From NCBI GenBank assembly GCA_947467145.1, contig CANIGJ010000003.1, forward strand, positions 143,065 to 207,064: a stretch of DNA of 64,000 nucleotides, given 5' to 3'. Below the pieces are notes generated by a model. That model searched no databases, was not told the DNA's origin, and worked only from the letters and a program-made list of their open reading frames with translations. Each line of letters begins with the position of its first letter. Position 1 is the first letter of the stretch. Position numbers and translations under genes: made by a program. This document shows, piece by piece, positions 3,575-52,679 of the stretch. The DNA is from Rhodospirillaceae bacterium (lineage in GTDB: Bacteria; Pseudomonadota; Alphaproteobacteria; Rhodospirillales; UBA2165).

Positions 3575-5296
3575 TTAGCCGGTTTCATCCTCGAACGTAT
3601 CGGGCCGATGATGTTGGCCACGCGCGGCGGCTAACGCATCCTCGATCGTCGGTTTGAATTGCACGCGCGGCGGCCGCACGTCATGGGCCTTCAGCACCCG
3701 TCGTAATGCAGGCGCTGCCCCCGTGATCATCAGTCTGATGCCGGCCTGTTCGGCCTTGCGCGCGAAGCCGTCGATGGTGACGGCGCCGGTCGAATCCAGA
3801 AACGGGACCGACGACAGATCGAGCACCAGCGTTTTGCCGGCATCGGCGACACGGTCGAGCACCGCGATCACCTTCGACGCGGCGCCGAAAAAGAACGCGC
3901 CGGAAATGCGGTAGACGAGAATATCGGGATCGCTCGCCAATGATGCGTCGTAGCGTTCGCGCGCCTCTGCACCGTCCGGTAAGTCGGGGGGAAACAACGG
4001 TGCGTGCGTTTGAATCTCGATCGCCTGCGCCATGCGACTGAGGAACAGCAGCACGCCGATGGCGAAGCCGATCAGGATACCGGCCGTCAGATCGTAGAAG
4101 ACGGTCAATAGGAAGCTTGCCAACAGAACCACGGCGTCGCCGCGCGACGCGCGCAGCAGCACGGCGAATTCGTGTTTCTCCGCCATGTTCCAGGCGACAG
4201 TGACGAGCACGGCCGCCAAGGCTGCCAACGGGATGTAACCGGCGAGCGATGCCGCGAAGACCATGAAGGCAAGCAGGAACGCCGCATGCAGCATGCCCGC
4301 GATCGGGCCGATGGCGCCGGCGCGCACATTGGTTGCGGTGCGCGCGATGGTGCCGGTGGCGCACAGGCCGCCGAACAAAGCTGCCCCCATATTGGCGATG
4401 CCTTGCGCGACCAGTTCGCAGTTCGAGCGATGCCTGCGCCCGGTCATCCCGTCGGCGACGACGGCGGACAGCAAGGATTCGATGGCGCCCAGAAGCGCGA
4501 TGGCAAACGCATCGGGCAAAACGGCGGCGATGCGGGCCAGGCTGAGATCGGGCAGGTGTGGCGTCGGCAACGTATTGGGAATGCCGCCGAATCGGCTGGC
4601 GATGGTTTCCACCGGCAGAGCGAACGCCCAGGTCGCGGCGGCGGACAGGGCGACCGCGATCAGCATGCCGGGCACGCGCGGGCCGATCTTGCGGCACAAT
4701 ACGATGAGCGTCATCACGGCAAGTGCGACGACGATGGCGATCGGATTGGCGCTGGAGATCGCCGCGCCAAGCGCTTGCAGTTTGGCGACAAGCGGTCCGG
4801 GTTCCGGTCCATCGAGCGTGAGGCCGAAAAAATCCCTGAGCTGACTCGCCGCGATGATGACCGCGATGCCGGCGGTGAAGCCGACGGTGACGGGGAAGGG
4901 GATGAACTTGATATAGGTGCCGATGCGCAACGCGCCGCCGATCGTCAGCATGATACCGGCGAGAAACGTCGCCAGTAGGAAACCGTCGAAGCCCTGGCGT
5001 TGAATGATGGCGGCGACCAGCACGATAAAGGCGCCGGCCGGGCCGCCGATCTGGAAGCGGCTGCCGCCAAAGGCCGAAATCAGAAAGCCGCCGACGATGG
5101 CGGTATAAAGGCCGCGCTCCGGCGAGGCGCCGGACGCAATTGCGATGGCGAGCGACAGCGGCAATGCGACAATGGCGACGGTCAGTCCCGCGACCGCATC
5201 GGCGCGCAGTTCCTTGAGGCCGTAGCCTTCACGCCAGACAGTGATGAGCTTGGGCGTGAACAGATCGGCGGAGTTGGGTTCGGGCGCGTTCGGCAT
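3575..5296 (-). CDS. SulP family inorganic anion transporter with C-terminal STAS domain
   Basis: 573 aa with many TM segments. The N-terminal motif LRADAVAGLTVAIVALPLSLAIAIASG is SulP-typical. The C-terminal about 120 aa (ILVYRISGAFFFGAA...LDLSSVPFLDSTG) is STAS-like. Confidence 0.85.
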   Translation of the reverse strand: MPNAPEPNSADLFTPKLITVWREGYGLKELRADAVAGLTVAIVALPLSLAIAIASGASPERGLYTAIVGGFLISAFGGSRFQIGGPAGAFIVLVAAIIQRQGFDGFLLATFLAGIMLTIGGALRIGTYIKFIPFPVTVGFTAGIAVIIAASQLRDFFGLTLDGPEPGPLVAKLQALGAAISSANPIAIVVALAVMTLIVLCRKIGPRVPGMLIAVALSAAATWAFALPVETIASRFGGIPNTLPTPHLPDLSLARIAAVLPDAFAIALLGAIESLLSAVVADGMTGRRHRSNCELVAQGIANMGAALFGGLCATGTIARTATNVRAGAIGPIAGMLHAAFLLAFMVFAASLAGYIPLAALAAVLVTVAWNMAEKHEFAVLLRASRGDAVVLLASFLLTVFYDLTAGILIGFAIGVLLFLSRMAQAIEIQTHAPLFPPDLPDGAEARERYDASLASDPDILVYRISGAFFFGAASKVIAVLDRVADAGKTLVLDLSSVPFLDSTGAVTIDGFARKAEQAGIRLMITGAAPALRRVLKAHDVRPPRVQFKPTIEDALAAARGQHHRPDTFEDETG

Positions 5297-5365
5297 CGCA
5301 ATACTTCCGCAGGGGCACTAGCGTTATCCGCCCCCGGCACGTGCGAAGCAACTCGGTAAGACCCC

Positions 5366-5752
5366 TTAGGACGCAGACCCGTTATGTTCGGGAAGCATCG
5401 TCATGTTGGCGAGGATCAGCCCGGCGTAATCGGCGAGGAACACGGAGCCTTTGAGCGTGCGTTGCACGAGCACGCTGCGCCGGTCGTCCTCGTCCACCTT
5501 GCGGCGCACGAAATCGAGCTGACCGAGCCGGTCGAGCGCGCGCGTCACGGCTGGTTTGGAAATATTCAGATCGCCGGACAGCCCGCGCACCGTATGCGGC
5601 GCCGGTTGGGTATAGACGATCAGCAGGATCGCCATTTGCCGGGTCGACAGATCGGGCTGATCGCGCCGCACCCCTTCGACGATGGTGCGCCGCCATAGCT
5701 CCAGGGCCTGGGCGGGCTTCACGGCGGGTGTGGAGGGAATGACGGGATCCAT
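5366..5752 (-). CDS. MarR family transcriptional regulator
   Basis: 128 aa with a winged-HTH pattern: LSTRQMAILLIV...VRGLSGDLNISKPAVTRALDRLGQLDFVRRKVDEDDRRSVLV. Confidence 0.75.
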   Translation of the reverse strand: MDPVIPSTPAVKPAQALELWRRTIVEGVRRDQPDLSTRQMAILLIVYTQPAPHTVRGLSGDLNISKPAVTRALDRLGQLDFVRRKVDEDDRRSVLVQRTLKGSVFLADYAGLILANMTMLPEHNGSAS

Positions 5753-5836
5753 GCGGCTCTTTAATTCATTACGCTATCGAACCGTTTTAGGCGCGATTCG
5801 CGTAAAAACCAATGGGCTGTCTGAGCCGAAGCGGAC

Positions 5837-10578: not shown

Positions 10579-11994
10579 ATGGACGGCGAGAACGTAGACC
10601 TCATCTGTATCGGGGCGGGGTTCGCCGGGCTCACCGCCGCGCTGCGCGCCCGCCAGCTCGGCCTGTCGGTCATTGTGCTCGAACGCCAGTCCGAGCCGAA
10701 GCAATACAACAATTCGCGCATCACGACCGGCGTCTTCCATGTCGCGTCCAACGACGTGCGCTTAGGGCCTGAAAAACTGATCGAAGCGATCAATATCGAA
10801 ACGCAGAACTACGCCAAGCCCGATCTGGTGCGTGCGATTGCCGAGAACGCCGCGCGCGTTGTCGATTGGCTCAAGGAACAAGGCGTCAGTATCGAACACG
10901 AAACCAGCATGGCCTATGTCGCCGGGCGCGCGCATCTTGTGCTGACGCCGGCACGCGCCATGCGTGCCGGGCTCGATTGGCACGGCAAGGGCGGGGATCG
11001 CACGCTCGGCGTGCTCGAGGACAAGCTGATCGATCTCGGCGGGCGTATCTTGCGCGGCGTCGAGGTCGCGAAACTGGTGATGGCCGAAGGCGTGTGCGTC
11101 GGGCTCGATGCGCGTCATGACGGACATATGCTGCGCTTCGGCGCCAAAGCCGTAGTGGTGGCCGACGGCGGCTTCCAGGCCAACCTCGCCATGCTGAAAG
11201 ATACGGTGACGCCGCAACCCGACCGCATCAAGGTGCGCGCCACGCCATCGGGGACGGGCGACGGTATCCGCATGGCGCGCGATGTCGGTGCGCGCATCAC
11301 CGAGGTCGGCGCGTTCTACGGCCATATCCAGGCGCGCGAGGCGATGCACGACGATCGCCTGTGGCCTTATCCCAATATCGATATCGCGGCGACCGGCTCG
11401 ATCGTGGTCGATGGGTCGGGCAACCGCTTCGTCGACGAAGGGCGCGGCGCGGTGTTCATCACCAATGCGATCGCCAAGCTCGCCGATCCGCTGTCCGCCT
11501 CGGTCGTGCTCAGTCGCAAGATCTGGGACGAGGTGGCGACGCAAGGCGTCTCGCCGCCCAATCCCGAACTGACCAAGAACGGCGGCGTATTGATCGAGGG
11601 CGCCGACCTCGCCACCATCGCGCGCACCATCGATGTGCCAGGTGCGGCACTCGCTGCGACCATCGCCAATTACAACGCGGCGGTAAAAAGCCGCGCCATC
11701 GATCGGCTCACGCCGATCCGCACGGAGAAGAAAGCCAAGGCGCATGTCATCGAAGCACCTTACTGCGCGATCAAGGTCTGTGCCGGCGTGACCAACACGA
11801 TGGGCGGCATCGATATCGATGCCGATGCCCATGTCCTGGCGGACGACGGCAAGCCGATCCCCGGCCTCTACGCGGCGGGTTCGACCACCGGCGGGCTCGA
11901 GGGCGGGCCGAATGTCGGTTATGTCGGCGGTATCGTGAAGGCCTTCGTATTGGGCCTATGTGCCGGCGAGGCCGCCGCGCGCGATAGCAGATAA
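10579..11994 (+). CDS. FAD-binding flavoprotein of the fumarate reductase/succinate dehydrogenase/KstD-like superfamily
   Basis: N-terminal dinucleotide motif DLICIGAGFAGLTAAL..VLER and a C-terminal GLYAAGSTTGG FAD-contact motif. 471 aa. Confidence 0.75.
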   Translation: MDGENVDLICIGAGFAGLTAALRARQLGLSVIVLERQSEPKQYNNSRITTGVFHVASNDVRLGPEKLIEAINIETQNYAKPDLVRAIAENAARVVDWLKEQGVSIEHETSMAYVAGRAHLVLTPARAMRAGLDWHGKGGDRTLGVLEDKLIDLGGRILRGVEVAKLVMAEGVCVGLDARHDGHMLRFGAKAVVVADGGFQANLAMLKDTVTPQPDRIKVRATPSGTGDGIRMARDVGARITEVGAFYGHIQAREAMHDDRLWPYPNIDIAATGSIVVDGSGNRFVDEGRGAVFITNAIAKLADPLSASVVLSRKIWDEVATQGVSPPNPELTKNGGVLIEGADLATIARTIDVPGAALAATIANYNAAVKSRAIDRLTPIRTEKKAKAHVIEAPYCAIKVCAGVTNTMGGIDIDADAHVLADDGKPIPGLYAAGSTTGGLEGGPNVGYVGGIVKAFVLGLCAGEAAARDSR

Positions 11995-12131
11995 GCGAGG
12001 CGGGCGACGAATTCGGAAAAGATCGAAACATATCTCCTCGACGGAGCCCCAGCCAATGCTGCTACTGGGTCGATGCCAGGGCAGACAGAAGGTGCTGGAC
12101 CGATCGGACCAAATTCTTCGGGGAGAATGAT

Positions 12132-12488
12132 GTGAGGAAACTTGCTCTTCTAGCCGTTCTTTTGTTGGCGGGCTGTCAGACGGCAGGCGGCGCCATGCGC
12201 GACCAAGTTGGCAATACATATCCAGAGGCTTGCCGAGGCGAATTGATCTGCACGCCGACTGGCTTCAACGGGGATGAGGACTGTGCGCTCGCGGGCAAAA
12301 AAATACAGGTTCAAACCGTAGAGAGTCGCTTTTTGACCAAAGGTTATTTGGCCGAATTTACCCCGGGCGGCATTGCGATGATTTCTTCTGGTCTTTCGGG
12401 TTGGAAAAGGAGCGACGCAATACGCCATGAGGCCTGCCATGCAGTCGCAGGTGAGTGGCATCCTAATTCAAGGGTCGAACTGAAATGA
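12132..12488 (+). CDS. Small lipoprotein with HExxH (metzincin-like HEACHAVAGEWH) motif
   Basis: GTG start after GGGGAGA. Lipobox LLLAGC (MRKLALLAVLLLAGCQ). The C-terminal RHEACHAVAGEWH contains HExxH plus a downstream G..H. The gene sits in a lower-GC segment. Confidence 0.5.
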   Translation: MRKLALLAVLLLAGCQTAGGAMRDQVGNTYPEACRGELICTPTGFNGDEDCALAGKKIQVQTVESRFLTKGYLAEFTPGGIAMISSGLSGWKRSDAIRHEACHAVAGEWHPNSRVELK

Positions 12489-12764
12489 GACAAGACTCCA
12501 TCTTCGACAGCATCAAGAACGTCGCGCTTGACGAGCCGGGCAGAGCCGATCACGAGGTCAAAGAGGTTTGAGCCCGAAATACATCATGCTTCGTAAATTG
12601 AATTAAATAGGCGCGCACGAGCGAAGCGGTGGCGCGCGGCGTCAATGGCAACCGGCGCATTTTGATCGCCCTCGCTCGCGCCGATGCGTTGAGAATGTCA
12701 TCGTTCGATGCCACAATGTGCGCCGATCGCGGCGTCCCGGGCGTATTCGGGCAGGAGAGGACAA

Positions 12765-14018
12765 ATGAATAAAAGCAACGATGTACCGGCCCTGGTATTC
12801 AGCCATTTCGGGGTGTTCTGCCACGATGTGGCGGCGCTTGAGGATTTCTATACCCGGGTCATGGGCTTCGCGGTCAGCGATTGCGGCCATGTCCATGCCG
12901 GCCCGGTCGAATTCGACATGTCCTTCATGACGCGGCGCCCGTGGGAGCATCATCAGCTCGTCATCGCCGGCGGCCGACCGCAGGCTCTGCCCTCCACCGT
13001 CAACCAGATTGGCTTCCTGGCGCCGAGCCTCGCCGAATTGCGCCGTATCAAGGCGCGCCTGGAAAAAGAACCGGGCGTCACTGGTATCGAAGCGGCCGAT
13101 CACGGCATCTCCTGGACGCTGTATTTCGTCGATCCGCAGGGCAATCGCATCTCGGCGTCGGTGAACACCGGCTGGTATGTGCCGCAGCCGGCCTATTGGC
13201 CGCTCGATCTTGCCTGGACGGATTCTGAAATCGTCCGCCAGACCGAGGCGCAGTGCCGTGCCACCCCGGGCTTCATGAACCGCGATGCGTGGCGCGACGA
13301 GACGCACAAGGTGCTGGCGTCGATGAACCGTCTCGCCAGCCAAGCGACGCCGAGTGTCGATGCCAAGATCACCTCGACCGAAAGCGTGTTCCGCCGCCCG
13401 GTCGGTACGACCGCGCCGGCCGATGCGTTCCCGCGCCTCGCCATGCATCAGGTCGGCATCTATGTCGCCGACATGGACAAGCTGCAGGCGTTTTATGAAA
13501 AGACCTTGGGCTATCTCGTGACCGGCAAGGGCCGCCTGCCCGCCGTCGGCTCGCAACCGGCCGCCGACGTCGTGTATCTGACGCGCGATCCCAATCAGGT
13601 GGCGCAACTGATCTTGGTATCAGGGCGCGACGCCAAGGTGAAATCAAGCGTCAACCAGATCACTTTCCGCGTGCCCGATATCGCGACCTTGCGCGGCATC
13701 AATGAAGCGCTGCGCACGATCCCGGGCTGCGCCAATTTCCGCCCGATCAATCACGGCAATTCCTACTCGCTCTATTGCGACGATCCGGAAGGCAACGCGC
13801 TCGAGATTTCGTTCGAATCGGAATATTACATTCCGGCGCCGATCGCCTGGCCGCTCGATTTCGGCATGGACGATGCAACCTTGCTCAAGCATGTGTCGGA
13901 TCGTGTCCATGCAACGCCGGGCTTCATGCCGCGTGCCGAATGGAAGGCGCGCTCGCGCGCCGAACTTGTCGCTTCGGGCCGTATCGAGGCCGAAGACCTC
14001 GTCGAGCATCTGTATTAG
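12765..14018 (+). CDS. Internally duplicated VOC (glyoxalase/extradiol dioxygenase) family protein
   Basis: ORF 12708..14018 trimmed to the ATG at 12765, which follows GGAGAGGA. Two homologous halves each have a VOC-like module plus a conserved tail (Y[VI]P.P..WPLD....ATPGFM.R..W). Confidence 0.7.
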   Translation: MNKSNDVPALVFSHFGVFCHDVAALEDFYTRVMGFAVSDCGHVHAGPVEFDMSFMTRRPWEHHQLVIAGGRPQALPSTVNQIGFLAPSLAELRRIKARLEKEPGVTGIEAADHGISWTLYFVDPQGNRISASVNTGWYVPQPAYWPLDLAWTDSEIVRQTEAQCRATPGFMNRDAWRDETHKVLASMNRLASQATPSVDAKITSTESVFRRPVGTTAPADAFPRLAMHQVGIYVADMDKLQAFYEKTLGYLVTGKGRLPAVGSQPAADVVYLTRDPNQVAQLILVSGRDAKVKSSVNQITFRVPDIATLRGINEALRTIPGCANFRPINHGNSYSLYCDDPEGNALEISFESEYYIPAPIAWPLDFGMDDATLLKHVSDRVHATPGFMPRAEWKARSRAELVASGRIEAEDLVEHLY

Positions 14019-14021
14019 AAG

Positions 14022-14894
14022 ATGAGGATCGTCCGATACGCTCTCGGCAGTGAAGCACGACTTGGGTTGCTGCTGTCCGACGACCGAGTCGCCGAATTGC
14101 CAGGCAACGACGATCTCGTCGCCTGGCTGCAGGCCGGCAAGCCGACGCAAAGCGCGTTTGCGCGCCCGCTGGCCGATTGCAAGTTGCTGGCTCCGGTGGC
14201 GCGGCCCAGCAAAATCATTGCGGTCGGGCGCAACTACCGTTCCCACAATCGCGAAATGTCGGCCGGCGATGGGCGTTTCCCCAATGTCGTGCCATCGGCC
14301 TGGATCAAGGCGACATCGACTCTTGCGGGTGCCTTCGACGACGTTGTGAAACCGCGCGCGACCCAGAAACTGGATTACGAAACCGAGCTGGCCGTGGTCA
14401 TCGGCAAGCGCTGCCGTCATGTGCACGAAGACGACGCTGTTTCGGTAATCGCGGGCTATACCGTCGCGTCAGACATCACGGCGCGCGATGTCGTCGCCAT
14501 CGAACGGGCCGAGGGCAACCAGCTCCTGGGCAAGATGTTCGATACCTTCTGCCCGATGGGGCCCTGGTTCGTCACCGCCGACGAAGTTCCCGATCCCATG
14601 AACTTGTCCTTGATCACACGCGTCAACGGCGAAGTGCGTCAGGAGTCGAACACCGCCAACATGATCTGGCCGATTGCCAAACTGATCGCGTACGTCTCGC
14701 AGATGACCTTGGAAGCGGGCGATATCATCCTGACCGGCACGCCATCGGGCGTCGCCATGGGACGAAAGGCCGGCGACTGGTTCTTGCAGGCGGGCGACGT
14801 GTTGGAATCCGAACTCGGCGGTATCGGCGTCATGCGCAACCGCATCGTTGACGCTGCGGATCAGCCCACCAGTTGGGACTGGGCGAAGGCCTAA
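14022..14894 (+). CDS. Fumarylacetoacetate hydrolase (FAH) family protein
   Basis: 290 aa. KIIAVGRNYRSH, ELAVVIGK, ARD..., MIWPIAKLIAYVSQMTLEAGDIILTGTPSGV are the FAH-family C-terminal domain blocks. It starts 3 nt after the VOC gene. Confidence 0.85.
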   Translation: MRIVRYALGSEARLGLLLSDDRVAELPGNDDLVAWLQAGKPTQSAFARPLADCKLLAPVARPSKIIAVGRNYRSHNREMSAGDGRFPNVVPSAWIKATSTLAGAFDDVVKPRATQKLDYETELAVVIGKRCRHVHEDDAVSVIAGYTVASDITARDVVAIERAEGNQLLGKMFDTFCPMGPWFVTADEVPDPMNLSLITRVNGEVRQESNTANMIWPIAKLIAYVSQMTLEAGDIILTGTPSGVAMGRKAGDWFLQAGDVLESELGGIGVMRNRIVDAADQPTSWDWAKA

Positions 14895-15535
14895 GCGGCC
14901 GCCAGTTTCCGGCTCGAAAGTGCGCTGACCGCAATCACCAGTCCGATCGCCACCGCGTGGATGGCCAGATCGATCACGGTCACGTCGAACGGGTGGAAGA
15001 ATTGCAGCAGGAATGCGGCAATCCCGGCGACACCGAGACCGCCCATGGCGGCGACCGAGGCCGGGGCGAGCGGCTTCGCGTGCAGTAGCATCCACGACAA
15101 GACGAGACCGAGTGGGATGCTCGTGCCCAGCAGGATCAGGAAACATTCCGTGCTTTCGGCGAGATCGGTCGGCGTGCCCGCGATCCAGCCTTGCAGGCAA
15201 CCGAGCCCGGTGGTGGCCAACCATGTGGCCAGCGCGGGCAGGGGCAGCAGCGCCCAGGCGCGACTGCGATCGGGCAGGCTCATTTCGAACGCGGCCACGA
15301 CCGCCAGCAGGCCGGTCGCGAGCGTGGCGGTCAACTCGACCATCTGACGCACATCGTGCGCGCGGCCGATGAAGGCGGACGTATCGGCAAACGCGGCAAT
15401 TATGCCGCCGGACCCGATCGCCACGCAGCCCAGCCAGGCCGCCGCGCGCATCAGGGGATGGCGCAGGCGATGGACGGGCCCGGCATCGGCGCTCAGCCGC
15501 GCGATCAATTGATCGGTCGTATCACTCATCGTCAC
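14891..15535 (-). CDS. nrsF: NrsF family (DUF1109) membrane anti-sigma factor for sigma F
   Basis: 214 aa. The N-terminus DQLIARLSADAGPVHRL is followed by about 6 TM segments, with conserved Cys in GLGCLQGW and STECFLIL. The start overlaps the stop of the ECF sigma gene by 14 nt. Confidence 0.8.
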   Translation of the reverse strand: MTMSDTTDQLIARLSADAGPVHRLRHPLMRAAAWLGCVAIGSGGIIAAFADTSAFIGRAHDVRQMVELTATLATGLLAVVAAFEMSLPDRSRAWALLPLPALATWLATTGLGCLQGWIAGTPTDLAESTECFLILLGTSIPLGLVLSWMLLHAKPLAPASVAAMGGLGVAGIAAFLLQFFHPFDVTVIDLAIHAVAIGLVIAVSALSSRKLAAA

Positions 15536-16100
15536 CCCGACTTCCTTTCAGGCGCGCCCGCAGTGTTTTTATGGCGCGATGCACATTGACCTTGAGGGCC
15601 GCGATGGACTTGCCGCTGACCTGCGATGCTTCGCGCAGCGACAGGTCCCGCACCTTCAAAAGCTCAATGGCCTCGCGTTGTCCTTCGGGCAGGGCGGCAA
15701 TCGCGGCGCCTAGTCCGGAGGCTTGCACGGTCAGCTCCGTGTCCTTGTTCGCTCCAGGATCGGCAAAGGTTTCATAGGCGACGTCGTCCGCGGTCTCGAC
15801 CGCGGCAATCCGCCCGCGCCGCCGGATCGCATCGATCGACCGCCGCCGCGCGATGGTAGCCAACCAGGCATCGAACGGGCGGGCCGGATCGTAGGTATGC
15901 CGGACGCGATGCACCGTCAGCAGGACGTCCTGCACGACATCTTCGATGCGATCTCGGCGATGCTGGCGCGCGACCACGGTGCGGATGAAGGGCACGGCTG
16001 CGCGCAACAGCTGCTCATAGGCCGCGCGGTCGCCGTCCTGGGCGGCCTGCATCAGCCGCGACCAGTTTTCGCGATTTGTGTTGTCGCCCTGTGTAACCAT
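15522..16100 (-). CDS. sigF: ECF RNA polymerase sigma factor (SigF-type)
   Basis: ORF 15522..16295 trimmed to the ATG at 16100 (MVTQGDNTNRENWSRLMQAAQDGDRAAYEQLL..). It has region 2 (DVVQDVLLTVHR..FDAWLATIARRRSIDAIRRR) and region 4 (LPEGQREAIELLKVRDLSLREASQVSGKSIAALKVNVHRA). It is co-transcribed with nrsF. Confidence 0.85.
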   Translation of the reverse strand: MVTQGDNTNRENWSRLMQAAQDGDRAAYEQLLRAAVPFIRTVVARQHRRDRIEDVVQDVLLTVHRVRHTYDPARPFDAWLATIARRRSIDAIRRRGRIAAVETADDVAYETFADPGANKDTELTVQASGLGAAIAALPEGQREAIELLKVRDLSLREASQVSGKSIAALKVNVHRAIKTLRARLKGSRGDDE

Positions 16101-16117
16101 TCCCGAAACCACGCGAA
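16091..16117 (+). promoter_or_regulatory. Candidate ECF (sigma F-type) promoter upstream of the bufferin precursor gene
   Basis: TGTAACC (16091-16098) followed 15 nt later by CGAA (16114-16117), about 63 nt upstream of the bufA ATG. From memory, the Caulobacter sigma F promoter is GTAACC..CGAA-like. The consensus and spacing need checking. Confidence 0.4.
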
Positions 16118-16179
16118 CAAACAGATACGGGCGGCCATTCGGACGCCCGCGCAATGTCAGCATAACTGGAGAGACACAG

Positions 16180-16464
16180 ATGCAAAAGGTTTCCACCAAA
16201 GGCGCTCTGCTCGCCGCGTCCGCTTTCGCGACTTTCGCTGTGATGGCCGCCGTTTCGCCGTCCAAGGCCGGCCCCGCGCCGGAGCCGACCTTCAAGGCCG
16301 AGAAGTGCTATGGCGTCGCCGCCTCGGGCCAAAACGATTGCGCGTCGGCGGGCAGCAATTCCTGCGCCGGGACCGCGACCAAGGCGAGCGACCCGAAGGC
16401 CTGGATCTATGTGCCGGCCGGGACGTGCACCAAGATTCAGGGCGCCACTCTGAAGGCGATGTAA
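16180..16464 (+). CDS. bufA: DUF2282 / BufA1-type bufferin precursor peptide (Sec signal peptide + Cys-containing core)
   Basis: ORF 16078..16464 trimmed to the ATG at 16180, which follows TGGAGAGA. MQKVSTKGALLAASAFATFAVMAAVSPSKA is a signal peptide. The core EKCYGVAASGQNDCASAGSNSCAGTATKASDPKAWIYVPAGTCTKIQG has the four Cys in the DUF2282 pattern. Confidence 0.85.
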   Translation: MQKVSTKGALLAASAFATFAVMAAVSPSKAGPAPEPTFKAEKCYGVAASGQNDCASAGSNSCAGTATKASDPKAWIYVPAGTCTKIQGATLKAM

Positions 16465-18539: not shown

Positions 18540-19352
18540 TTAAGACGTGGTGCGTTTGCGCGGACGTTTCGGCGCGACCTTGGGATAATTGACGGCCGTT
18601 TGGTGCACGTGGTGACCCATCAGGTCGGCCGCTTCGGCGGCTTTGCCCTTTTCGATGAGCTGTAAAATCTGCTCGTGAATTTTCTGAATGCGTTTGCGCG
18701 CCGACAGCGTCAGCTCGACGTCGTCGCGCCGGGTCACCAGACGCAAGGCGCGAAACAGCGAACTCAACACCGGATTCTGCGTGCTCTTGGCGACGCAGAC
18801 ATGGAATGCAAGGCCGTTGTCCTGGAACGCATGTACGGAGCCGATCAGATCGGCGCCGTCCTGCACGATCGCATGTAACTCCTTGATATTGTCGGCAGTG
18901 CGGCGCTGGGCGGCGAGGCGGGCGGCCGTCATCTCGATGACATGTTGCATCTCGAATATCTGCGGCAGGTTCACATCCGCTAGTTTAAACTGTACCGCCA
19001 ACGCCTCGGCGAAACTGTCTGGGTGTCCTTCGGCGATCCAGGCCCCACCTTTCGCCCCTGAGCGAACCTCGATGATGCCAAGACCCTGCAGCGATTGCAG
19101 CGCCTCGCGTGCGGTGCGCCGCCCGACCTTGAATTTTTCTACAAGCGTACTTTCCGAGCCGAGAAAATCGCCGGGACGAAGCAGGTCCTCGAAAAGCTGG
19201 CTCTTGACGTGGGCGACAAGCGCATCCGACGCCCGAGATGACGATTGCGGTTCGAATTCGAGCGGCGAAGAGATCTTGGGGCGGCTTTTTCGCAAAGGCT
19301 GGGTCCGATGGCGACAACGATACGATTGGCGGAAACTATCGTGTTTTCGCAA
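18540..19352 (-). CDS. GntR/FadR family transcriptional regulator
   Basis: N-terminal wHTH LRPGDFLGSESTLVEKFKVGRRTAREALQSLQGLGIIEVRSGAKGGAWI plus an all-helical FCD-like C-terminal domain. The start is uncertain: TTG at 19352, or an in-frame TTG at 19292. Confidence 0.75.
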   Translation of the reverse strand: MRKHDSFRQSYRCRHRTQPLRKSRPKISSPLEFEPQSSSRASDALVAHVKSQLFEDLLRPGDFLGSESTLVEKFKVGRRTAREALQSLQGLGIIEVRSGAKGGAWIAEGHPDSFAEALAVQFKLADVNLPQIFEMQHVIEMTAARLAAQRRTADNIKELHAIVQDGADLIGSVHAFQDNGLAFHVCVAKSTQNPVLSSLFRALRLVTRRDDVELTLSARKRIQKIHEQILQLIEKGKAAEAADLMGHHVHQTAVNYPKVAPKRPRKRTTS

Positions 19353-19420
19353 ATATTCAAACGCTGGTCCGGGACGGCGACCCAGATTCAGCTAGTGTCC
19401 GTATTTGTCGCCTGCTAAAG

Positions 19421-19436
19421 ATGTCATATATGACAT
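19421..19436. promoter_or_regulatory. Perfect 16-bp palindrome ATGTCATATATGACAT, candidate GntR-family operator
   Basis: It reads identically on both strands. It contains the GT-N-AC core typical of GntR/FadR operators. It lies in the divergent intergenic region between the regulator and the Rieske oxygenase gene, just upstream of AAGGAGG (19444-19450). Confidence 0.45.
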
Positions 19437-19457
19437 ATATAAAAAGGAGGCCTCGTC

Positions 19458-20765
19458 ATGACGTCGGCGCGCGATAACGAAACTCTCACGTCGGTCGGTC
19501 CCGGCACACCGATGGGCGAATTGATGCGGCGCTATTGGGTTCCGGCTGCGCTCTCCAGCGAGGTGACCAAAGACGGCGATCCGTTGCGGCTTAAATTGCT
19601 ATGCGAGGACCTGATCGCGTTTCGCGATTCGTCAGGCCGCGTCGGCGTGATGGATCATCGCTGCCCGCATCGTTGTGCCTCCTTGTTCTTCGGGCGCAAC
19701 GAAGAAGGTGGTATCCGTTGCGTCTATCACGGCTGGAAGTTCGACGTCGACGGCAACTGCACCGACATGGCAAATGTGCCGCCGCACCAGGATTTCAAGC
19801 ACAAGGTTCATGCCAAGGCCTATCGCGCCGAAGAACGCGCTGGCCTAATCTGGGTCTATATGGGCGATCAGGCGCGCGTGCCGGCCCTGCCTGATCTGGA
19901 GGTGTTGCAACTGGACGCCGACGCGGTGGGAATCGATGTGTTTCAGCGCGAATGTAATTGGTTGCAGGCGCTCGAAGGCGACATCGATACATCCCACGTC
20001 GATTTCTTGCACGGCGGAACGCGTACGGTCGATGATTTTCCGCCGGACGATCCGCGCCGCTACGGCGCGATCCATCGCGATCCGGAATACACGATTGCGG
20101 AAACGGACTGGGGTACGATGTATGGCGCCCATCGCCCCGCCGATCAGGGACGGCGCTATTGGCGTGTCGCCCATTTCCTGTTTCCGTTTTGGACGATGAC
20201 GCCGGCAGGCGTTTTCGACACCTATATCCATGCGCGCGCCTGGGTGCCGATGGACGATCACCACACCATGGGCTTTGGTCTATCGAAAAAGGGATCGCGC
20301 CTGACGGCGATCGGCAACGCCAAGCAGGGCATTGCGCTTCACGTCGAGGAACGCTTACCCAATACCACCGACCGGTTCGGCCGGTGGCGCTTTGCTGCCA
20401 ACGCGCGCAACGATTACCGGATCGATCGCGCTGCCCAACAATCGCAAATCTATAGCGGCATCACCGGCATCACGCTGCAGGACCAGGCGATGACCGAAAG
20501 CATGGGAGAGGTCGTTGATCGTTCGCTGGAACATCTGGCGCCGAGCGATCGCATGATTGCCGTGACGCGCCGTCGGCTTTTGTTTGCTGCTCAAGCCTTG
20601 CAGAAAGACGCCGTGGCACCTCCCGGCGCCGATGAGCCCGGTGTGTTTCATGGCGCACGTGGCGGCTATTACCTGGCGCCGGAAAATGCCGAATGGCAGG
20701 ATTTTTATAAAGAAAGACTCACCTCGGTACGCCGCCAAGCCAGCTCCGCCGCAGCGGCGGAATAA
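19458..20765 (+). CDS. Rieske (2Fe-2S) non-heme iron oxygenase, alpha-only (phthalate/VanA/PobA-like family)
   Basis: Rieske motif CPHRCASLFFG...CVYHGWKF. The catalytic domain has NWLQALEGDIDTSHVDFLH (Fe ligands). No beta subunit follows. There is a strong RBS. Confidence 0.85.
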   Translation: MTSARDNETLTSVGPGTPMGELMRRYWVPAALSSEVTKDGDPLRLKLLCEDLIAFRDSSGRVGVMDHRCPHRCASLFFGRNEEGGIRCVYHGWKFDVDGNCTDMANVPPHQDFKHKVHAKAYRAEERAGLIWVYMGDQARVPALPDLEVLQLDADAVGIDVFQRECNWLQALEGDIDTSHVDFLHGGTRTVDDFPPDDPRRYGAIHRDPEYTIAETDWGTMYGAHRPADQGRRYWRVAHFLFPFWTMTPAGVFDTYIHARAWVPMDDHHTMGFGLSKKGSRLTAIGNAKQGIALHVEERLPNTTDRFGRWRFAANARNDYRIDRAAQQSQIYSGITGITLQDQAMTESMGEVVDRSLEHLAPSDRMIAVTRRRLLFAAQALQKDAVAPPGADEPGVFHGARGGYYLAPENAEWQDFYKERLTSVRRQASSAAAAE

Positions 20766-32058: not shown

Positions 32059-33566
32059 TTATTGCGGCTTGCCGAAATCCTCGGCGGCGATGGCGAAATT
32101 AAGCGAGTCGGCGTCGCGGATGGCGAAGCTGGTGATGCCGACCAGATTGCCGCTCGCATCGAACAGGCCGCCGCCCGACGAGCCGGGCGAAATCGGCGCC
32201 GTCGTCTGCACGACCTGCATGCCGTCGAGTTTGCGCAGGCCCGACACGATCCCCTGGCCGAGCGTGTTCTCGAGCCCGTGCGGCGAGCCGATGGACACCA
32301 CCGCCTCGCCGACCTTCAGGCTGTCGAAGGCGCGCACGGTCCGCGCATAGCTCTGCAAGGATTTCTCCACCGCGAGGATGCAGCGATCGGTGCCGGGCGA
32401 AGCGGAGGCGAGTGTCGCCGGGCGGATATCCTTGCCCTGTTTGACTACGATCGAGCGCGCGTCCTCGACGATATGACAATTGGTGATCAGCCGGTGCGGG
32501 CCGATGGCGACCGCTGAGCCTTGCGAAATGGAACCGCGCGGCTCGCTCGCCACGGCGATGGTCCACACGTGCTTGCTCGCGCGTTCGAAAATTTCGGACG
32601 CGGCGAGCGGCGTGTCCGCTTTCGCGGCCGTGCGGTCGAACGCGATCAATTGCCATTGCGGCATCGACGGCGACGGCGTCCCCATGCGCGGCGCCCGGCT
32701 GGCGCTTTCCGTCTGCGGCCGCGCTTCGATCATCGTGCTGGCGGGTGGTGCGACGAGATCGGGCTCGCTGTTCGTTGGGCGCCACCGCGCCACGGCGCCG
32801 GCCGCTTGTTGGATGTAGCGTGTCGGCAAAGCGCGTTCCATGTTGGCTTTGAGGATCGGCAGGCGGCCGGGCAGGCAGGTTTCCGTGACGAAGCCGGCCG
32901 GTGGCGTGATGCCGGCGGGGGCGCGCGTCAGCGAATGAATCTCCGATAGGCGCGCGGTGCTGCCGCTCTGGCCGAGCAGCAGCCAGAAATACGCCTTGTC
33001 CAATTCTTCTCGCCGAGGCTGCCGTCGTAATAGGCGTTCGCCAGAAAGGCCTGGGCATGGCAATTGTTCTGTTCCGCCGTCTGGGTGATCAAGGTGCGCG
33101 CTTCGGGTACGTTGGTCGTCCACAGACGGGACGCCTGCAGCAGGCGAGCCCATTGCGCGCCACCGGCCAGCGCCGCGTCGAGCGTCTTGGCGGCGGCGGT
33201 CTGATCGGCGGCGAGCGGCGCTTTGCCGAAATAATAGGAATCGTACATCGCGCGCAGCGCCTTGCCGTTGCCCCAGGCAGCGGCATCTTCCGTCCATTGC
33301 AGGGCGGCGGCCGGATCGGGTTTTTGCGCGAGATAACTTGCCACCGCCATGGCGACGTCGCCGTTGCGGCGCTCGCTGGCGCGCTGCGAGCAGCCCACGA
33401 GATTGGCTTCCACGACATAGTCGCACGACGCCAGAGCGTAATCGGGCAGTTGGCTCGTGCGCACGTTTCCCGTCGGCAGGCCGCAGGCGCCGAGTATACC
33501 CGCGCTCACTGCGCCGATCGTGATTCGTCCCCAAAGACGCACGTAATCGCTCCCTATCCCTCGCAT
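32059..33566 (-). pseudogene. Sel1-repeat lipoprotein fused to a trypsin-like (S1/S1C) serine protease; reading frame interrupted near 33005
   Basis: Frame 1 (32928..33566) has the lipobox ILGAC plus Sel1-like repeats, then degenerates into an Arg-rich tail. Frame 2 (part of ORF 32059..33534) continues ..ELDKAYFWLLLGQSG.. (Sel1-like), a Pro-rich linker, and a protease with ITNCHIV, DRCILAV and GSSGGGLF (the His/Asp/Ser triad). If the genes are split, the protease could start at the ATG at 32841. Confidence 0.5.
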
Positions 33567-49659: not shown

Positions 49660-50073
49660 ATGGTTTTCGCCGGGATCAATTATCTCGCTATCGTCATTGC
49701 GGCCCTCTCCAGCTTCGGCTTCGGTGCGCTCTATTACATGTCCTTGGCGAAACCGTGGATGGCCGCGCTCGGCAAAACCGCCGACGAGATGAAGGCGAAT
49801 TCATCCAAGACGCCGTTCATCGTCACGATCGTCAGCGAACTGATCATCGCCTGGGTGTTGGCGGGCGCACTCGGTCATCTCGGCCCAGGCCAAGTCACCC
49901 CGCGCAACGGCATGATCACCGGCTTCATCCTGTGGGCCGGTTTCGTGATTACGACCATGGCGGTCAATCACGCCTATGAAGGGGCGAAGCGCACGCGCAC
50001 GCTCATCGACGGCGTGCACTGGCTTGGCGTGTTGCTGCTGCAGGGCTTGGTGATCGGCTTCTTCGGCGTTTAG
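49660..50073 (+). CDS. DUF1761 family membrane protein
   Basis: 137 aa with 4 TM segments. INYLAIVIAALSSFGFGALYY..LAKPWM is the DUF1761-like N-terminus as I recall it. Confidence 0.6.
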   Translation: MVFAGINYLAIVIAALSSFGFGALYYMSLAKPWMAALGKTADEMKANSSKTPFIVTIVSELIIAWVLAGALGHLGPGQVTPRNGMITGFILWAGFVITTMAVNHAYEGAKRTRTLIDGVHWLGVLLLQGLVIGFFGV

Positions 50074-50124
50074 CTGCTCCTCGTCGTCATTTCCGCGTAT
50101 GGCGGTATGACGTAGAGTGTCGGA

Positions 50125-50826
50125 ATGGAAATCGCGCTCGTTGATGGGCGTCGTAGTGCGCCTCAGCCTCGCTTAACTGGGCATTGCCCGGTCTGTGGCT
50201 CGATTGTCATCGCTAAATGTGGGACACAGCGCACATGGCATTGGTCCCATAAGGGCGAGCGATCATGCGATCCTTGGTGGGAAGAAACGGAATGGCATGT
50301 CTCTTGGAAGAGCTGCTTCCCGCAGGATTGGCGCGAGATTATTCACACTGCGCTGGACGGTGAAAAGCATATCGCGGATGTGAAGCTAGCGGACGGTCGC
50401 GTCCTCGAATTTCAGCATTCGGCGATTTCCGAAGAAGAACGACAATCGCGCGAAGCATTTTACGGATCGATGATCTGGATTGTGGATGGACGTCGGCGCA
50501 AACGTGACATTCAGACGTTCCAAACGACGCTGCACCAAACGAGTCGAGATCCCTTGGTCTATTCGGGATACAAAGAAGACTGTGCCCTGTTGCGCGATTG
50601 GGTGGGGCGTCCGGTGCATGTCGTCTTCGATCTGGGCGATCGGAAGGAAGACGTTGCAGCATTTGGTGCGACCGTTCTGTGGCAGCTTCATCCCGACCCC
50701 CAGGGGCAGGTGATCCTAACGCCGATCCCCAAGAAGGTTCTTATCGATATGTTGCACAAGGGTACTGCATTGCGGCATCTCCGCCGCACGCAGGCTCCAG
50801 CACCCAGACCTATTCGGCGCTTTTAG
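50125..50826 (+). CDS. CoiA-like competence/nuclease family protein
   Basis: 233 aa. The N-terminal Zn-ribbon-like part is CPVCGSIVIAKCG..R.WHWSH. It continues with ETEWH..WK, then HIADVKLADGRVLEFQHS (a PD-(D/E)xK-like D...E.Q motif). The gene is in a lower-GC segment. Confidence 0.6.
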   Translation: MEIALVDGRRSAPQPRLTGHCPVCGSIVIAKCGTQRTWHWSHKGERSCDPWWEETEWHVSWKSCFPQDWREIIHTALDGEKHIADVKLADGRVLEFQHSAISEEERQSREAFYGSMIWIVDGRRRKRDIQTFQTTLHQTSRDPLVYSGYKEDCALLRDWVGRPVHVVFDLGDRKEDVAAFGATVLWQLHPDPQGQVILTPIPKKVLIDMLHKGTALRHLRRTQAPAPRPIRRF

Positions 50827-52553: not shown

Positions 52554-52648
52554 GGGAGGCCGGCAGTGGACGGCTTGCTCGCCAACCCGGTCAGGTCCGG
52601 AAGGAAGCAGCCGTAACGAGTTTCGGCCGGGTCGTTGTCCGGTCTCCC
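52554..52648 (+). ncRNA. ffs: Signal recognition particle RNA (small bacterial 4.5S type)
   Basis: It contains the universally conserved domain IV sequence GGTCAGGTCCGGAAGGAAGCAGCC (52589-52612). The flanking arms GGGAGGCCGG / CCGGTCTCCC pair to close the hairpin. It lies directly upstream of dnaX, as in many alphaproteobacteria. The ends are accurate to about 5 nt. Confidence 0.85.
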
Positions 52649-52679
52649 ACTTCTCTCCCGCTCCAGCACACGGCTCGCC

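Follow-up and report, generated by a model that had tools for sequence, protein, structure and literature searches.

An aromatic-catabolism operon of a Rhodospirillaceae bacterium contains, between two of its genes, a segment of lower G+C content (GC), and the question is where this segment came from and what its gene encodes. The segment occupies positions 11995–12764 of a 64-kb stretch of DNA (64,000 nucleotides of contig CANIGJ010000003.1, assembly GCA_947467145.1; the window hereafter), lies between a flavoprotein gene and a VOC-type gene, and carries the gene for a 118-residue lipoprotein precursor with an HExxH motif. The best overall explanation, to which a probability of roughly 0.6 is assigned, is that the segment is a phage-type accessory gene (a 'moron') that encodes a minimal, envelope-anchored zincin and was inserted into the operon.

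Composition of the segment

The GC of 11995–12764 is 55.8%, as compared with 62.2% for the whole window. A value this low is found in 0.55% of the 770-bp intervals of the 64 kb, and the lowest of these intervals begins at 12011, within the segment. The low-GC portion is 11995–12600 (52–57%), and the final 164 nt (12601–12764, + strand), which form the spacer 5' of the VOC gene, are native-like at 62.2%. The hand counts made in a first-pass annotation of the sequence by a model are exact: 12121–12600 contains 255 G+C in 480 nt (53.1%), and the GC of 12301–12360 is 38.3%.

The open reading frame (ORF) for the 118-residue protein is located at 12132–12488 (+ strand). The GC of its first, second and third codon positions is 0.58, 0.50 and 0.53, respectively, and the third-position value (GC3) of the four neighbouring genes is 0.78–0.80. 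Its codon usage was examined with a log-odds score trained on 34 native genes, with 307 chunks of 118 codons from native genes as a comparison set. The score of the ORF deviates by z = −9.4 from the mean of the 34 native genes and is lower than those of all 307 chunks (307/307). This deviation is far beyond chance. Thus, windowed GC and codon usage, which the first-pass annotation had proposed as checks, both single out the segment. The ORF is preceded by a 5' spacer of 56.9% GC (11995–12131, + strand) and followed by a low-GC tail of 51.8% (12489–12600) with no recognisable feature. No terminator-like site was found in a scan of the + strand of this tail, and no Rfam match was obtained in the insert.

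The lipoprotein gene

The ORF starts with GTG, and a Shine-Dalgarno-like sequence, GGGGAGA (12120–12126), is located 5 nt 5' of this codon. The GTG start is supported because the relatives of the protein align with it from residue 1. The N-terminal region (12132–12176, + strand) consists of a predicted signal peptide and the lipobox LLLAGC, namely MRKLALLAVLLLAG followed by Cys15 (12174–12176), with Gln at position +2; its parts are arranged as MRK-LALLAVLLL-AG-C15. The protein contains the lipobox pattern [LVI][ASTVI][GAS]C, and a simple lipobox pattern is present in 37 of 56 relatives. The Pfam family LPAM_1 gives 15.7 bits with the window protein, which is under the cut-off of 20. The C-terminus of the protein is RHEACHAVAGEWH.

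The ORF is not a chance frame, because every residue that is invariant in its family is kept in it, and it is almost certainly a real gene. The HMMER family, the alignment, the structural model, GC3 and the codon score all bear on this assignment. The first-pass annotation had reported one convincing gene in the segment, for a 118-residue lipoprotein with the lipobox LLLAGC and an HExxH motif, and this gene is present exactly where it was placed. A 610-bp metagenome contig (ENA contig MEHR18-2_SAMN08331099 scaffold_916803), the one additional record of the sequence, is 100% identical to 11972–12581 of the window, and this copy is regarded as coming from the same organism and not as an independent one because of this identity. 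The database gene call on this contig, of 97 residues, starts at an internal ATG (Met22), by which the signal peptide is lost, and shows how members of the family become mis-annotated.

No promoter-like site was found in a promoter scan of the 5' spacer (11995–12131). Because the gene has the orientation of the operon and no such site lies upstream of it, it is probably read together with the operon, by read-through from the flavoprotein gene. In the spacer downstream of the gene (12601–12764), a sigma-70-like sequence, TTGAGA-17-CACAAT with an upstream TG (12689–12717, + strand), is present as a match to the consensus only, as is a ribosome-binding site, GGAGAGG. This promoter-like site may restore the transcription of the downstream VOC and FAH genes and thereby offset the polarity of the insert.

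The first-pass annotation had also pointed to a 28-residue ORF (12485–12571, + strand) that overlaps the stop codon of the lipoprotein gene (ATGA). This ORF exists with the overlap as described, but it finds no support as a gene, since similarity stops at the lipoprotein ORF. When the insert was compared with the family loci by tblastx, similarity was confined to the lipoprotein ORF, both flanks were unsupported, and no conserved counterpart of the 28-residue ORF was detected beside family members. This ORF is too short for any inference from composition.

The protein family

A word-indexed protein search with the window protein retrieved only the protein itself, and an alignment-based search retrieved 13 proteins, none of them named. 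An exhaustive HMMER search over 1.84 billion representatives at a threshold of E≤1e-3 gave 58 relatives (cluster representatives), nine of them at ≤1e-10. These relatives are full-length and colinear with the window protein, are aligned from residue 1 to 110, and consist of 77–187 residues, with nearly all in the range of 90–125.

Residue conservation was counted in an alignment of 56 sequences. Six residues, D24, C34, H99, C102, H103 and H110, are invariant (56/56), and five are nearly so: W109 and P31 are conserved in 55, E100 and G107 in 54, and G27 in 52 of the 56. The family consensus consists of a signal peptide with a lipobox, the segment DQxGNxYPxxCRGDLS, a variable beta region, the segment IxIxxxLxGWxxxDxxRHExCHxxAGxWH, and then the end of the protein. 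Most relatives end 0–10 residues past the third His, and the window protein ends 8 residues past H110. The spacing between HExxH and GxWH varies, some relatives having 6–10 extra residues before GxWH. A hairpin insertion at residues ~38–54 (LICTPTGFNGDEDCALA; 12245–12293, + strand), which is recognised from the family alignment and from predicted strands and contains an extra pair of Cys residues (C40/C51), is shared by the window protein with no more than a few close relatives.

None of the 56 members reaches a family in Pfam, NCBIfam or PADLOC, and the PADLOC models of defence systems gave no family-level match. Comparison with PHROGs gave weak matches to two families of unknown function, and no functional name. 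The signal peptide has a sub-threshold match to 'Rz-like spanin' in PHROGs; identity as a spanin was rejected, the match covering residues 1–28 only. No description of an HExxHxxxGxxH lipoprotein family was found in full-text literature searches. These results indicate that the protein belongs to a rare, unnamed family of zincin-like proteins of ~100–120 residues, putatively exported, that is absent from curated libraries. The gene thus exposes a family of 58 cluster representatives among 1.84 billion for which there is neither a Pfam or NCBIfam entry nor a functional PHROG annotation.

Predicted structure and putative zinc site

The structure was predicted with AlphaFold2 from the family alignment, separately for the precursor and the mature domain. 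The precursor was modelled with a predicted local distance difference test (pLDDT) score of 91.3 and a predicted template modelling (pTM) score of 0.79, and the mature domain with scores of 88.2 and 0.81, respectively. The models contain strands at residues 38–42, 49–53, 56–63, 74–76 and 81–85 and a single helix at residues 90–106 (pLDDT >90), with no structure after residue 110. H99-E-x-x-H103 is located at the end of this helix, which is preceded by the strands 74–76 and 81–85, and G107-x-W-H110 is located in the turn that follows it. The putative zinc site, H99-E100-A-C102-H103-A-V-A-G107-E-W109-H110, is encoded at 12426–12461 (+ strand) and is recognised from the sequence, the alignment and the models. 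The arrangement that defines a zincin, HExxH on an alpha-helix with both His residues and the Glu conserved, is found here in that the helix is predicted, H99 and H103 are conserved in 56/56 and E100 in 54/56.

The mature domain and the precursor, with and without the signal peptide, were compared with known and predicted structures using Foldseek. The only high-probability matches in the PDB are local ones to the M78 zincins IrrE/PprI, which cover 47–49 residues with a root-mean-square deviation of 2.0 Å (probability 0.82–0.93, E 0.2–0.5). The top matches in BFVD, a set of predicted viral structures, are phage proteins of 90–130 residues (probability 0.96–1.0, E 0.02–0.3), several of which are annotated as IrrE-like, PolyVal or metallopeptidase. 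At the sequence level, Peptidase_M78 (PF06114) is weakly matched by 3 of the 56 members (best E 0.0073) and not by the window protein; SprT-like is weakly matched by a few members, these Pfam matches being sub-threshold. When the family profile was compared with 177,635 PDB sequences, the sole match was selecase MJ1213 (4QHF), which is not significant (E 1.4–1.7). In this alignment, the motif (HErCHvvaGeWH against HELLHLKYGKYH, with the same HExxHxxxGxxH spacing) and the strand before it are in register. A search seeded with the selecase fragment gave one relative only, P0067 (YgjP-like), on which the hhalign comparison rests; it returned the same alignment of 38 columns (E 7.7e-4, probability 25%). 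None of the 56 members matches PF01863 (YgjP-like) at E≤0.1.

The motif therefore sits, in the models, in a zincin-type strand-loop-helix element and is more conserved than any other part of the family proteins, and the remaining predicted fold has no solved counterpart. The first-pass annotation had proposed a small exported protein with HExxH, and had named as a refutation the case in which the motif is not conserved and lies in a non-peptidase fold. The small exported HExxH protein is borne out by the alignment, and that case does not arise, as the His residues of the motif do not vary and 54 of 56 relatives have the Glu. Sequence and models together make a zinc site in the 118-residue protein quite likely.

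Whether such a site would be catalytic is a separate question. According to the alternative that survives best, the protein is a non-catalytic lipoprotein, in which His, Cys and Asp residues bind a metal (Zn or Cu) in a structural site or to buffer it in the periplasm, or which binds a receptor as Llp and Cor do, without proteolysis. The invariant residues D24, C34 and C102 could serve as additional metal ligands, the predicted fold has no backing helix or lower subdomain and no whole-fold match in Foldseek, and the protein is small, membrane-anchored and in a phage accessory position, like the known exclusion lipoproteins such as T5 Llp. However, the Glu of HExxH is retained in 54/56 although it is no metal ligand in zincins, the strand-loop-helix and the G-x-aromatic-H turn match the selecase/IrrE-type catalytic core, and no sequence match to an annotated exclusion protein was found in PHROGs. 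Catalysis is favoured over metal binding alone because this Glu, which does not bind the metal in zincins, is near-invariant. A non-catalytic metal- or receptor-binding lipoprotein is a serious rival, its metal-binding form being the fallback of the first-pass annotation, even if it is judged unlikely, and the odds that the protein is an active peptidase, as sequence and models suggest it may be, are put at about even.

Genomic contexts of the relatives

All six readable contexts of the relatives (6/6) are phage-like or lie at the edge of an integrated element. In one locus (L011), the family gene is located between an early operon with Erf, NinB and DUF968 genes and an HNH endonuclease gene. 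It is accompanied by a P22-type gene, a NikA-like gene and genes of PHROG-only families in L009/L010, and by genes for an endolysin and holin-like membrane proteins in L013. It directly adjoins a phage integrase gene at a junction with housekeeping genes, that is, at an island edge, in P0061, is accompanied by an MT-A70 methyltransferase gene and small ORFs in P0060, and lies within a run of small ORFs in P0043. The GC of the family gene tracks that of its own surroundings in these other loci, from 44% to 65%. A scan of metagenomes gave three loci only.

Probable gain of the segment at the operon junction

The genes that border the insert are native. On the left is the gene for a flavoprotein of 471 residues (10579–11994, + strand; Pfam FAD_binding_2, E 3e-49; GC3 0.80), and on the right is the gene for a two-domain protein of the VOC/extradiol-dioxygenase type of 417 residues (12765–14018, + strand; Pfam Glyoxalase, two domains). 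One genome per species was scanned for relatives of the operon. The same cluster is found in a metagenome-assembled genome (MAG) of Caenispirillum bisanense, the closest available genome, with seven syntenic genes of 69–87% amino acid identity (80% for the flavoprotein and 87% for the VOC protein). The gene order is that of the window: Rieske alpha, Rieske beta, flavoprotein, VOC, FAH, NrsF-like and ECF sigma.

In the Caenispirillum MAG, the flavoprotein stop codon and the VOC start codon are only 21 nt apart, and the segment is absent. Nucleotide homology between the two genomes ends at ~11972–11990, in the last codons of the flavoprotein gene, and restarts at 12781. The 5' spacer has no counterpart in this genome, and the 12601–12764 spacer is also absent from it. 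Because these two genes are 21 nt apart in this relative, the segment is regarded as a lineage-specific gain. The synteny check suggested by the first-pass annotation has accordingly been made, with the result that the relative has the two genes adjacent without the insert. It is very probable that a short foreign segment (~11995–12600, possibly to 12764) was inserted, on the same strand, between two genes of the aromatic-catabolism operon. The horizontal acquisition proposed in that annotation is borne out by the outlying GC3 and codon usage, by the 21-nt spacer of the relative and by the presence of relatives in phage or integrative-element DNA.

Two further genes are located at junctions of this operon in other genomes. 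In the Caenispirillum MAG, an ORF for a P-loop-like protein of 178 residues with no Pfam hit (5263–5799, − strand) lies between the Rieske beta and flavoprotein genes. In another locus (L004), the flavoprotein and VOC genes are separated by a gene for a TauD-family dioxygenase (1421–2308, + strand). Genes seem to have been gained repeatedly at junctions of the operon in different lineages.

The reverse history, in which the operon contained the segment from the outset and the Caenispirillum relative lost it, or in which the ORF arose by chance as an open frame within a spacer in decay, is very improbable. It is accommodated by the single close syntenic comparator, by the absence of mobile-element scars flanking the segment and by the native GC of the final 164 nt. 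However, the codon usage and GC3 of the ORF deviate widely from the range of native genes, and an old resident gene would have ameliorated; all invariant residues of the 58-member family are kept in the ORF, which is not expected of a chance frame; the relatives are on mobile DNA; and other lineages have acquired different genes at the junctions of this operon. Thus, the insertion itself is an ordinary horizontal transfer, which placed one accessory gene at an operon junction without apparent link to the catabolic pathway.

Proposed mechanism and role

According to the proposed mechanism, the precursor would be exported, cleaved by signal peptidase II and lipidated at Cys15, so that the mature domain (~90–100 residues) would be anchored by this residue to the periplasm-facing leaflet of a membrane and held ~8 residues from the lipid anchor. 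The Gln at position +2 suggests the outer membrane by the E. coli +2 rule. The domain would be a minimal zincin, in which a small beta-sheet is packed on one helix. Three His residues, H99 and H103 of the helix and H110 beyond the turn at Gly107, would bind a Zn2+ ion, and E100 would serve as the general base. A disulfide bond between C34 and C102 would staple the N-terminal DQxGNxYPxxC segment onto the active-site helix and may thereby take over the part that a backing helix and a C-terminal subdomain play in larger zincins.

The family would travel as an accessory 'moron' of phages and integrated elements, and the most likely role of its product would be to modify or cleave an envelope protein near the membrane; receptor destruction and superinfection exclusion are examples. 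An enzyme acting on such a protein is favoured because the Glu is near-invariant and the gene is carried as a phage accessory. A phage-related role at the envelope is nevertheless tentative and is held to be doubtful. Still less probable is the strongest form of this proposal, that the family represents the smallest self-sufficient zincin catalytic domain, of ~90 residues with one helix, a small sheet and a disulfide bond through HExCH but no lower subdomain, and is used by phages, as a protease tethered to the membrane in the periplasm, to destroy or trim a receptor of the envelope, leading to enzymatic superinfection exclusion or protection of the progeny. The window copy would probably be a stranded single-gene remnant or passenger with no link to the catabolic pathway.

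Several results weigh against the explanation by an inserted phage-type gene for an envelope-anchored zincin. With regard to the phage origin, tblastn searches against 50,697 phage records (INPHARED) and 72,556 plasmids (PLSDB) gave no match, and a pattern scan of IMG/VR gave no confirmed relative. The family is considered rare because no relative is found in cultured phages, plasmids or IMG/VR, and the link to phages is drawn from six metagenomic or MAG contexts. With regard to the insertion, no flanking phage gene or integrase gene is found beside the window copy, which also has no terminal repeats: terminal inverted or direct repeats, a target-site duplication and a second copy of the segment were all absent within the 64-kb window, in which only short chance matches were found. 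The polarity of gain versus loss depends on composition and on one close comparator. With regard to the zincin, Foldseek did not match the whole fold significantly to any PDB structure, and neither the PDB profile nor hhalign, Foldseek or Pfam gave a statistically significant match to a characterised peptidase, the values for the selecase alignment being those given above (E 1.4–1.7 and a probability of 25%). The active-site cleft may be absent in the monomer because the predicted fold does not contain the backing helix and C-terminal subdomain that are present in all solved zincins. Finally, the Glu of HExxH is missing in 2 of the 56 members, and C102 is missing in an extended member, P0063.

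Other features of the window

Genes for an NrsF-family anti-sigma-like membrane protein and an ECF sigma factor (14891–16295, − strand) are located directly downstream of the catabolic genes and occupy the same place in the Caenispirillum MAG. A GntR/FCD regulator gene of somewhat lower GC (18540–19352, − strand) adjoins a second Rieske-type oxygenase ORF (19458–20765, + strand), and the region 18540–20765 may be a second catabolic module. A long ORF at 32059–33534 (− strand) encodes a protein whose C-terminal part resembles serine proteases of the trypsin type (…SPGSSGGGLF…). Several alternative frames overlap with this ORF, and the gene model is tentative. A 233-residue ORF at 50125–50826 (+ strand) is located in a second island of lower GC (~54.5% at 50051–50350) and has a match to Pfam CoiA_N (E 4.4e-8) and a weak one to CoiA_nuc, and it is another candidate foreign gene. 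The only Rfam or ARAGORN matches in the window are a bacterial small signal recognition particle RNA (52554–52651, + strand; 64.5 bits) and a tRNA-Leu(CAG) (1773–1859, − strand).

Comparison with known systems

Among the known HExxH proteins, the metzincins, of which snapalysin (M7) is to our knowledge the smallest, resemble the window protein in that they are secreted and have HExxH followed by Gly and a third His, but they differ in the fixed HExxHxxGxxH/D spacing, the Met-turn and the C-terminal subdomain. That the protein is a true but extremely reduced metzincin, for which the superficial likeness to HExxHxxGxxH speaks and which the first-pass annotation implied by the term 'metzincin-like', is dismissed as extremely improbable, because its motif, HEACHAVAGEWH, is HExxHxxxGxxH, one residue longer and with a spacing that varies in the family by 6–10 extra residues in some members, because most members end 0–10 residues past the third His and so have no Met-turn, C-terminal helix or C-terminal subdomain, and because no metzincin family of Pfam (M10, M12, M7 etc.) is matched at E≤0.1 by any of the 56 members and no metzincin is found among the Foldseek matches. 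Metzincin identity is thus refuted on its defining features, and the spacing is instead that of selecase MJ1213.

The exclusion lipoproteins T5 Llp, Cor and Ltp are likewise small, encoded as phage or prophage accessories and active at the envelope, but they act by binding, and no sequence similarity to the window family was detected. We know of no HExxH motif in these proteins, and comparison with the annotated exclusion proteins in PHROGs gave no sequence match.

The M78 proteins IrrE, PprI and ImmA, together with small phage proteins of the IrrE-like and PolyVal-like types, are the best local structural matches, and they are also phage-borne. They are cytoplasmic regulators without a signal peptide, in which the third ligand is located ~30 residues downstream on another helix, and the matches have weak E-values and cover under half of the window domain.

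Selecase MJ1213 (4QHF) and the YgjP-like proteins (PF01863) are minimal zincins related to the 'minigluzincins'. Selecase and the window protein are both of ~110 residues, have identical HExxHxxxGx[aromatic]H spacing and contain a hydrophobic I-x-I strand and a loop before the active-site helix. Selecase, in the reported work of Lopez-Pelegrin and co-workers of 2014, is said to be cytoplasmic and archaeal and to have a backing helix and C-terminal helices. The window family differs in that its members are predicted to be exported, lipidated and beta-rich with a single helix; their sequences stop at the third His, and the motif itself contains an invariant Cys (HExCH). The backing helix and the C-terminal helical subdomain of selecase are not found in the AlphaFold2 model, whose mature domain has one helix only, and the similarity is not significant (E 1.4–1.7; hhalign probability 25%). 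In this family, according to the models, a zincin-type site with selecase-like spacing is joined to predicted export and lipidation and to an unusually reduced fold. It shows how far a zincin-type metal site may shrink, to ~95 mature residues and one helix with the third His at the very C-terminus; if it is active, the protein would be a useful minimal scaffold and a candidate case of envelope modification by a phage-encoded enzyme, which would be a new type.

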